In this document: piece after piece, positions 63,435 to 64,000 of the stretch
Layout: each line of letters opens with the position of its first letter
Numbering within the stretch: position 1 is the stretch's first letter
Origin: Escherichia coli
GTDB lineage: Bacteria; Pseudomonadota; Gammaproteobacteria; Enterobacterales; Enterobacteriaceae
Strand: one strand, 5' to 3'
Assembly (NCBI RefSeq): GCF_003334315.1
Contig: NZ_QOWR01000023.1
DNA: 64,000 nucleotides
Translations under genes and position numbers: made by a program
The notes under the pieces: model-generated
The model's database searches: none
Told to the model about the DNA's origin: nothing
What the model saw: only the letters and a program-made list of their open reading frames with translations

Positions 63435-64000
63435 CTATCTTTTTTTATCGTTTGACTGTCTGGAGTGACGACAATTCCAGGCTTTCTGTGTGCTTTTTGC
63501 ATCTTTAGCACTAATATCACCACAATCAATTAGTTCCTGAAGTACGTCACATCTGTCGGGTTTTTTCCCATCACTCCAGAATCTGTCATTTATTATGTCA
63601 TTGACACGATCAGTTATCCCTGTGTCTGCAACATTTCCACGAGAAGCTATCATTGTTATATCTAATGCTAGTCCCGGATTATTCAATATTAGAGAGTCAA
63701 ATATTCTTTGTGATGCTGTATCGTTCCACCATTTTGTCAATGCTTTTGCAGCATTATCATCTGCTTGCTGCTGTGCAGGGCTTTTGGGCCATGGAATTGG
63801 CAAGGGGAATGGTCTAGGAAAAACTTCTAACCCCAGAGGATCTGTATTCGTAACTGGATTCAACGGATACTGATAAAAATTCCATCCCCCCTTCAGCCCA
63901 ATCGGATCCTGAGTGATATATCGCCCCTGCAGCGGGTCATAATAGCGGTGGCGGTTGTAATACAGGCCGGACTCCTCATCATACTGCTGCCCCGGCAGGC
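63435..64000 (-). CDS. rhsA: Rhs protein, C-terminal end only (core end plus variable toxin domain); remainder of the gene lies outside the window
   Basis: Hand translation from the window edge gives ...[57 protein letters not shown], then a unique 130-aa tail; symbol assigned from the yibA neighbourhood. Confidence 0.75.

Follow-up and report, generated by a model that had tools for sequence, protein, structure and literature searches.

The toxin domain Ntox34 was defined in 2012 by Zhang, de Souza, Anantharaman, Iyer and Aravind as an all-alpha domain with the conserved motif set GNxxD, K, C, C, K and WxCxH, which is carried by RHS proteins and partnered with Imm-HEAT immunity proteins (Zhang et al., 2012; PMC3482391). 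The prefix "Ntox" stands for novel toxin and nothing more, and Table 2 of that study places the domain under "Predicted metal-independent RNase toxins", a prediction drawn from patterns of conservation and from how common nucleases are among such toxins (Zhang et al., 2012; PMC3482391). In Escherichia coli, the C-terminal (CT) tip of RhsA, RhsA-CT, prevents stationary-phase cells from recovering and is neutralized by yibA, as summarized in PMC3150448 with reference to Vlazny and Hill (1995), and in Neisseria cinerea the PAAR-Rhs-Ntox34 protein Nte2 lowers viability when located in the cytoplasm of E. coli, from which Nti2 rescues the cells (PMC8263058). Here, we analyze a tip of this kind in a stretch of 64,000 nucleotides (nt) of E. 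coli DNA (assembly GCF_003334315.1, contig NZ_QOWR01000023.1), referred to as the window, at one end of which an Rhs gene is followed by yibA. An earlier reading of the sequence (the original prediction) had described the residues that follow the DPLGL motif of this Rhs protein as an unassigned toxin domain; it is indeed the C-terminal toxin of the main Rhs protein, but it is not unassigned, as it matches the Pfam family Ntox34 (PF15606) over the full length of the model. The tip is RhsA-CT of E. coli, an already described member of Ntox34, and as a sequence feature it is thus already known. What the present analysis adds is the composite nature of the tip, the residue counts for its conserved core, the lack of informative relatives and the conserved HEAT-repeat partner.

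RhsA-CT Is a Member of the Ntox34 Family

The tip is encoded on the minus strand (63438-63827, 130 codons), and its 130 residues agree exactly with the peptide quoted in the original prediction (from the translation of 63432-63998, minus strand), while the plus strand over 63435-63830 contains stop codons throughout. When the sequence is indexed by hand, the final Leu codon of DPLGL begins at base 63830. Upstream, the Rhs frame stays open to the end of the window at 64000, so that the window holds the last 187 codons of the gene, and the N-terminal 1190 codons of rhsA fall outside it; in the K-12 orthologue, this outer part (residues 1-1200) comprises DUF6531, RHS repeats and an RHS domain. 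The NCBIfam models RHS_core (NF041261, positions 1205-1261 of 1261) and Rhs_assc_core (TIGR03696) both end at residue 57 of the 187-residue fragment, the terminal L of DPLGL, and a 172-nt repeat of the RHS core stops at 63829, so that the domain boundary after DPLGL proposed earlier is borne out. With its toxin behind an RHS core and a DPxGL cleavage motif, and with the core 3' end repeated before each orphan tip, the protein agrees in layout with the Rhs polymorphic toxins, a class of type VI secretion effectors.

Pfam Ntox34 ("Bacterial toxin 34") matches CT residues 51-125 (numbered with E1 as the first residue after DPLGL) over model positions 1-80 of 80, with E values of 1.6e-43 to 6.5e-44, and RefSeq names fragments of the tip "polymorphic toxin type 34 domain-containing protein". 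The complete published motif set is present, namely G64-N65-V-A-D68, K111, C93, C119, K115 and W117-N-C119-R-H121, and the AlphaFold2 model contains only helices, in keeping with the all-alpha definition. Scans with NCBIfam, PADLOC and PHROGs returned no model matching the toxin, Pfam revealed no second recurrent family among 54 homologues, and an Rfam scan of 59000-64000 found no RNA genes.

The open reading frame (ORF) of the tip is confirmed as genuine rather than due to chance, since the RHS models end at the Leu of DPLGL, the Ntox34 model matches, and the same 396 bases recur, at 99% identity or more, in 1791 of the 5426 complete E. coli genomes. With one further, less similar occurrence the sequence is present in 1792 of these genomes, always on the chromosome and in a median of one copy (two at most). 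The 3 kb around the tip are up to 99.9% identical to thousands of E. coli chromosomes, in which the annotated genes are an RHS element core protein, yibA, an orphan RHS fragment and yibG. The gene order of K-12 MG1655 (rhsA, yibA, yibJ, yibG, ..., yibH, yibI, mtlA) is retained in reverse complement, with mtlA at 55558-57471. While the 396 bases of the tip are 100% identical to K-12 rhsA, the last 9.25 kb of the window are 99.75% identical to MG1655, hence the DNA derives from a close relative of K-12 and not from K-12 itself. The features of the region are collected in Table 1.

Table 1. Features of the rhsA-yibA region, in the coordinates of the window.
Feature	Position	Strand	Basis or remark
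3' end of RhsA core, ending in DPLGL motif	63828..64000	minus	DPLGL codons 63842-63828; gene runs past window end
Proline-rich linker, CT residues 1-16	63780..63827	minus	sequence; same linker before other toxin types
Long helix, CT residues 17-48, into moderately hydrophobic segment, 42-60	63642..63779	minus	AlphaFold2; presumed linker/entry module, outside conserved core
Ntox34 core, CT residues 51-125	63453..63677	minus	Pfam PF15606; GNVADTGI cap, three helices, then KAWNCRHSR strip
Basic C-terminal tail, CT residues 120-130	63438..63470	minus	sequence; overlaps end of Ntox34 match
TAG stop codon of rhsA	63435..63437	minus	sequence
rhsA-yibA spacer, 20 nt	63415..63434	minus	GGAGG ribosome-binding site 63423-63427, 8 nt ahead of yibA ATG
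yibA, HEAT-repeat immunity gene, 280 codons + stop	62572..63414	minus	NCBIfam PRK09687, E 3.2e-140
YibJ, orphan Rhs fragment	61586-62530	minus	RHS core end (residues 2-152), then 162-residue tip, about 61586-62075
YibG, Sel1-repeat protein	61113-61574		next after YibJ

Part of the tests suggested alongside the original prediction had been carried out long before, as Vlazny and Hill (1995) had, in the account given in PMC3150448, reported both the toxicity of RhsA-CT and its neutralization by yibA. Taken jointly, the identity of the tip as RhsA-CT and Ntox34, the cytoplasmic action of its core as a toxin and the block by YibA are held with high confidence.

A Composite Tip With a Small Conserved Core

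The 130 residues are not all toxin domain. The tip is a composite, in which the first ~50-60 residues form a separate module of linker and helix that is also found before other toxin types, followed by a three-helix core of 66-75 residues. Computed on an alignment of 54 homologues, the AlphaFold2 model has a mean predicted local distance difference test (pLDDT) score of 84.9 and reaches 94-98 for residues 71-120, with helices at 17-48, 69-86, 92-102 and 107-116 and a short one at 124-127; the score is about 82-93 for helix 17-48 and drops to 54-66 for residues 41-60. A model computed from the single sequence was poor (pLDDT 57) and was set aside in favor of the alignment-based one.

In other Rhs proteins, the same linker precedes Ntox16 and at least three unrelated tips that lack a Pfam family, so linker and helix together look like a reusable pre-toxin module and a recombination junction. 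Linker and helix together span 63684-63827 (CT residues 1-48; compared in proteins P0013, P0019, P0022, P0024 and P0032), and in one E. coli strain the first 53 nt of the module lie inside rhsB. The hydrophobic segment at CT residues 42-60 reaches a Kyte-Doolittle maximum of 1.17 over 19 residues, and a segment of membrane grade is present at the same place, no more than 70 residues upstream of the core, in 19 of 35 homologues; among the Ntox34 homologues of other bacteria, the position of the front module is usually held by a hydrophobic or glycine-rich segment. One subfamily (P0078, P0082, P0083 and P0085; for example L010 103-471) has a strongly hydrophobic helix (Kyte-Doolittle up to 2.5) that ends 1-2 residues before the GN motif, on short contigs where the N-termini are possibly incomplete; with the helix abutting the motif, the core of these proteins would sit at the membrane surface. 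A Met is found four residues before the GN motif in 32 of 52 cores, and many database entries start right there (CT residues 59-60 in E. coli), which could reflect a structural residue, an artefact of gene calling or an internal start. Met59 of the E. coli tip is not preceded by a Shine-Dalgarno or ribosome-binding site, and an internal promoter or start for the tip was rejected on this ground and on the chance frequency of promoter-like sites.

The family is small, with 41 representatives at 50% clustering among 1.84 billion proteins and 72 matches by profile search. Counted over 52 non-redundant full-length cores, T113, K115 and C119 are present in all, as is T or S at position 69, and C93 is present in 51. 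L96, A116 and R123 follow in 50 cores, G64 and S122 in 49, N65 and R120 in 48, D68 in 47 and K111 in 44, while W117 (40/52) and H121 (29/52) are clearly more variable. The His of the published WxCxH motif therefore appears not to be essential. The median isoelectric point (pI) of the cores is 9.5, and across 59 homologues the segment with the C-terminal motif has a median net charge of +5 (range +2 to +9). The E. coli core, with a pI of 7.9, divides into an acidic N-terminal half (pI 4.3) and a basic C-terminal half (pI 10.2). The remark in the original prediction that the tail is basic is true of the whole family; the nucleic-acid interaction that was suggested from it agrees with the published RNase prediction, and it stays speculation.

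Searches beyond the family were uninformative. Foldseek found no match for the core in the PDB, and in AFDB50 all of its matches were Ntox34 proteins, from E. coli, Neisseria, Snodgrassella, Xanthomonas and Salmonella. A sequence search of the PDB gave noise and a weak match to the competence pilin ComGC. For the soluble domain of ComGC (PDB 6TXT), the profile comparison with the Ntox34 core gave an E value of 0.03, an hhalign probability of 81% and 32% identity over 56 columns. The two domains are similar in length, and the ComGC domain follows a hydrophobic helix as many Ntox34 cores do, but it has none of the invariant Ntox34 residues. Folds or motifs of known RNase toxins (BECR/barnase/RelE, RNase A, HEPN Rx4-6H, PIN, colicin E3) were not found in the tip, and the earlier observation that it carries no recognizable nuclease, deaminase or ADP-ribosyltransferase fold or motif holds in both the PDB sequence search and Foldseek. 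Outside the family, neither solved nor predicted structures resemble the core, and its fold offers no clue to its activity.

YibA and the Conserved HEAT-Repeat Partner

The yibA gene starts 20 nt after the rhsA stop codon, behind its own GGAGG, and its product aligns over its entire length (1-280 to 1-280, 609.6 bits) with PDB entry 1OYZ, "hypothetical protein yibA"; the gene is annotated as yibA in K-12 and in strain CP53. That YibA is the partner of the tip, as the original prediction had assumed for the neighboring gene, is in line with what is found elsewhere in the family, where in six of the eight contexts examined, spanning Proteobacteria, metagenomes and a cyanobacterium, the Ntox34 gene is directly followed by a HEAT_2 gene; the two contexts that lack one are two very divergent matches.

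The cyanobacterium, Hormoscilla sp. (GCA_051439505.1), has a free-standing Ntox34 gene of 66 residues (L004 5001-5201) with an in-frame stop two codons ahead of its ATG, and a HEAT-repeat gene of 275 residues (L004 5230-6057) is located 28 nt downstream. Since the Hormoscilla gene has neither an Rhs carrier nor a hydrophobic segment, the Ntox34 core alone would appear to be a complete unit with its HEAT partner, laid out like a toxin-antitoxin pair. A free-standing toxin, as is typical of type II toxin-antitoxin modules, is thus seen in the Hormoscilla homologue, whereas the window has the toxin fused to its Rhs gene. In strain CP53 (L001 2433-6566), the annotation gives rhsA as a pseudogene interrupted by an internal stop, beside an intact yibA, showing that an immunity gene can outlive its toxin carrier.

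Proposed Mechanism and Alternatives

In the solved Rhs effectors, the shell cleaves itself after DPxGL and the tip stays enclosed. Judging from the family, the RhsA shell would likewise cut itself after DPLGL and keep the 130-residue tip inside; delivery would depend on a type VI secretion system, which in strains that have one would fire the protein into neighboring cells, and in strains lacking such a system the pair may persist as a toxin-antitoxin-like module. Residues 1-60 would represent the reusable module of linker and helix, which probably aids entry to the cytoplasm, an assignment that we consider about even. The actual toxin is very probably the three-helix domain of ~65 residues (about 60-125), which acts in the cytoplasm, as the literature reports for RhsA-CT itself and for Nte2, and YibA would bind and block the tip there, as suggested by genetic evidence. 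In the core, a polar and basic site, putatively formed by N65, D68, T69, K111, T113, K115, R120, S122 and R123, would act as a metal-independent ribonuclease on a polyanion that carries phosphate, most likely RNA, and the cysteine pair C93-C119 would staple the fold by linking the C-terminal strip to helix 2. Taken as a whole, this explanation (RhsA-CT, Ntox34, immunity by YibA and the proposed mechanism) is given a probability of about 0.6. Its chemical step on its own, the action of the core as a metal-independent RNase, is our best guess for the chemistry, in line with the listing by Zhang et al. (2012), but we rate it as well below even.

Several observations weigh against the explanation, above all against its chemistry. 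H121 is the only His of the WxCxH motif and is present in merely 29 of 52 homologues, which makes an RNase mechanism based on His unlikely, and a catalytic Cys-His dyad within the motif was ruled out for the same reason. Substitutions at N65 and D68 occur in a few homologues, the E. coli core is close to neutral, a domain of ~65 residues is small for an enzyme, and rhsA is a pseudogene in strain CP53. An assay of any Ntox34 activity was not found in the searchable literature, and the later "RNase" labels, in the Nte2 paper and in reviews, as well as the "DNase" label of a study on enterohemorrhagic E. coli, trace back to the 2012 prediction.

The core may instead be a minimal fold of ~65 residues with an activity or target outside the known toxin classes, that is, neither a classical RNase, DNase, deaminase or ADP-ribosyltransferase nor a pore former, which would serve as the warhead of Rhs proteins and also, on its own, as a toxin with HEAT-repeat antitoxins in phyla as distant as the cyanobacteria. 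We treat this as a substantial minority view, left open by a fold that has no relatives, by an invariant set (two Cys, Thr-x-Lys and Arg-x-Ser-Arg) that fits no known catalytic signature and by the absence of a biochemical assay from the searchable literature. Another possibility, in which the core would be a non-nuclease enzyme acting on a phosphorylated small molecule or protein (a nucleotide, a cofactor or a lipid-carrier phosphate) and one invariant cysteine or the Thr-x-Lys pair would join the chemistry, seems unlikely. Its appeal is that C93, T113, K115 and C119, the most invariant residues (51-52 of 52 cores), are not a classic RNase set, that a fold with no relatives excludes no class of activity, and that the subfamily with a membrane helix 1-2 residues from the GN motif would have its site at the membrane surface; positive evidence for a particular substrate is absent, though, the 66-residue free-standing form has no membrane segment, and nucleases dominate among polymorphic toxins, as argued by Zhang et al. 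(2012). The very small size of the domain, of which 66 residues suffice, could also mean that it is no enzyme at all. A small basic three-helix binder might block an essential cytoplasmic target one-to-one, such as part of the machinery for translation or for handling nucleic acids, which would suit the failure of structure searches to find a catalytic fold or motif, the fact that none of the N-terminal motif residues is strictly invariant, and the resemblance of the free-standing pairing with a HEAT protein to toxin-antitoxin pairs, where binders are common. Cloned RhsA sequences reportedly perturb the translational machinery, going by the title of a 2011 study by Aggarwal and Lee. Across phyla, however, the invariant Thr, Lys, Cys, Arg and Ser look more like a substrate site, as an interface would usually drift, and secreted Rhs toxins arrive in very few copies, which favors catalysts; a binder is therefore also judged improbable.

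That the tip acts on the membrane, as does the pore-forming Rhs toxin Tse5, with its hydrophobic segment dissipating the inner-membrane potential, is very improbable. Segments of membrane grade or resembling a glycine zipper do occur in 19 of 35 homologues (more weakly in RhsA-CT, at the value given above), but the conserved part is the polar, charged core and not this segment, the free-standing cyanobacterial toxin does without it, and the toxin works when made in the cytoplasm (PMC8263058). The HEAT-repeat immunity proteins are moreover soluble, with neither signal peptide nor membrane helix, and YibA was crystallized as a soluble protein, so that the conserved hydrophobic helices and membrane-associated immunity of a Tse5-like toxin are not seen here. 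A different kind of doubt concerns the role of the pair in the host. In a K-12-like strain, it could be no weapon but a relic that cannot be delivered, or a selfish module similar to a toxin-antitoxin pair, kept because a cell that lost yibA would die if internal starts allow the tip to be made. No vgrG, eagR or other type VI genes lie beside rhsA in K-12 and CP53, where the upstream genes are yibF and selA, and no chaperone gene flanks rhsA there; K-12 itself is not known to have a type VI secretion system. The existence of free-standing Ntox34-HEAT pairs and the interrupted rhsA beside an intact yibA in CP53 point the same way, and the Rhs tips of Salmonella have internal promoters that drive their expression and behave as type II toxin-antitoxin modules (PMC7043789). 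We rate this possibility below even. Convincing internal start signals were not found in E. coli RhsA-CT.

Downstream Orphan Modules

The 3' end of the RHS core (172 nt) is present in three copies, at 63829-64000, 62076-62247 and 60925-61096, with the other two 93% and 74% identical to the reference copy. One copy goes with the main toxin-immunity pair, and the others go with two orphan modules downstream. The last of them (60925-61096) lies ahead of degraded ORFs that are annotated in K-12 as the pseudogenes yibS and yibW. In the orphan Rhs fragment YibJ, the 162-residue tip has no match in Pfam or NCBIfam, and it is this tip, rather than RhsA-CT, that is the toxin domain of the locus lacking a family. 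YibG is likely its immunity protein.

Significance and Comparison With Known Systems

Of the 5426 complete E. coli genomes, 1792 (a third) carry the RhsA toxin, the main laboratory strain included, and its immunity protein has been crystallized (1OYZ). The widely copied "RNase" label is a prediction only, and the problem is now narrowed to a core of ~65 residues with about a dozen near-invariant ones. A new activity, if true, would add one more toxin class and an explanation of HEAT-repeat immunity, whereas a plain RNase would close a small gap.

Among the described systems, the main and orphan Rhs-CT toxins of Salmonella Typhimurium (Starsta et al., 2020) resemble the locus in having an Rhs tip and an immunity gene that possibly act inside the producer and in a similar downstream orphan array, while their toxin domains are different and their internal starts have no convincing counterpart in RhsA-CT. 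The Nte2/Nti2 pair of N. cinerea (Custodio et al., 2021) is closer, with the same family on an Rhs carrier, cytoplasmic toxicity and rescue by the adjacent gene; the Neisseria cores show 64% identity over 62 aligned columns. Unlike RhsA here, Nte2 is housed in a working type VI secretion system, and its "RNase" label stems from database annotation and not from an assay (PMC8263058). Compared with Ntox34 and Imm-HEAT as described in 2012, the tip agrees in its full-length match to the hidden Markov model of PF15606, its all-alpha fold, its motifs, its RHS carrier and its HEAT-repeat immunity. The wider sample departs from that description in the lower conservation of the His and Trp of WxCxH (29 and 40 of 52 cores, respectively), and from the taxa and forms listed at the time in that the family also occurs free-standing and in a cyanobacterium. 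With the core extension of E. coli K-12 RhsA and dsORF-a1 (YibA) of Vlazny and Hill (1995), finally, the locus is the same entity, as DNA, gene order and YibA agree, and it differs in coming from a close relative (99.75% identity over 9.25 kb) and in being represented in the window by the last 187 codons of rhsA.
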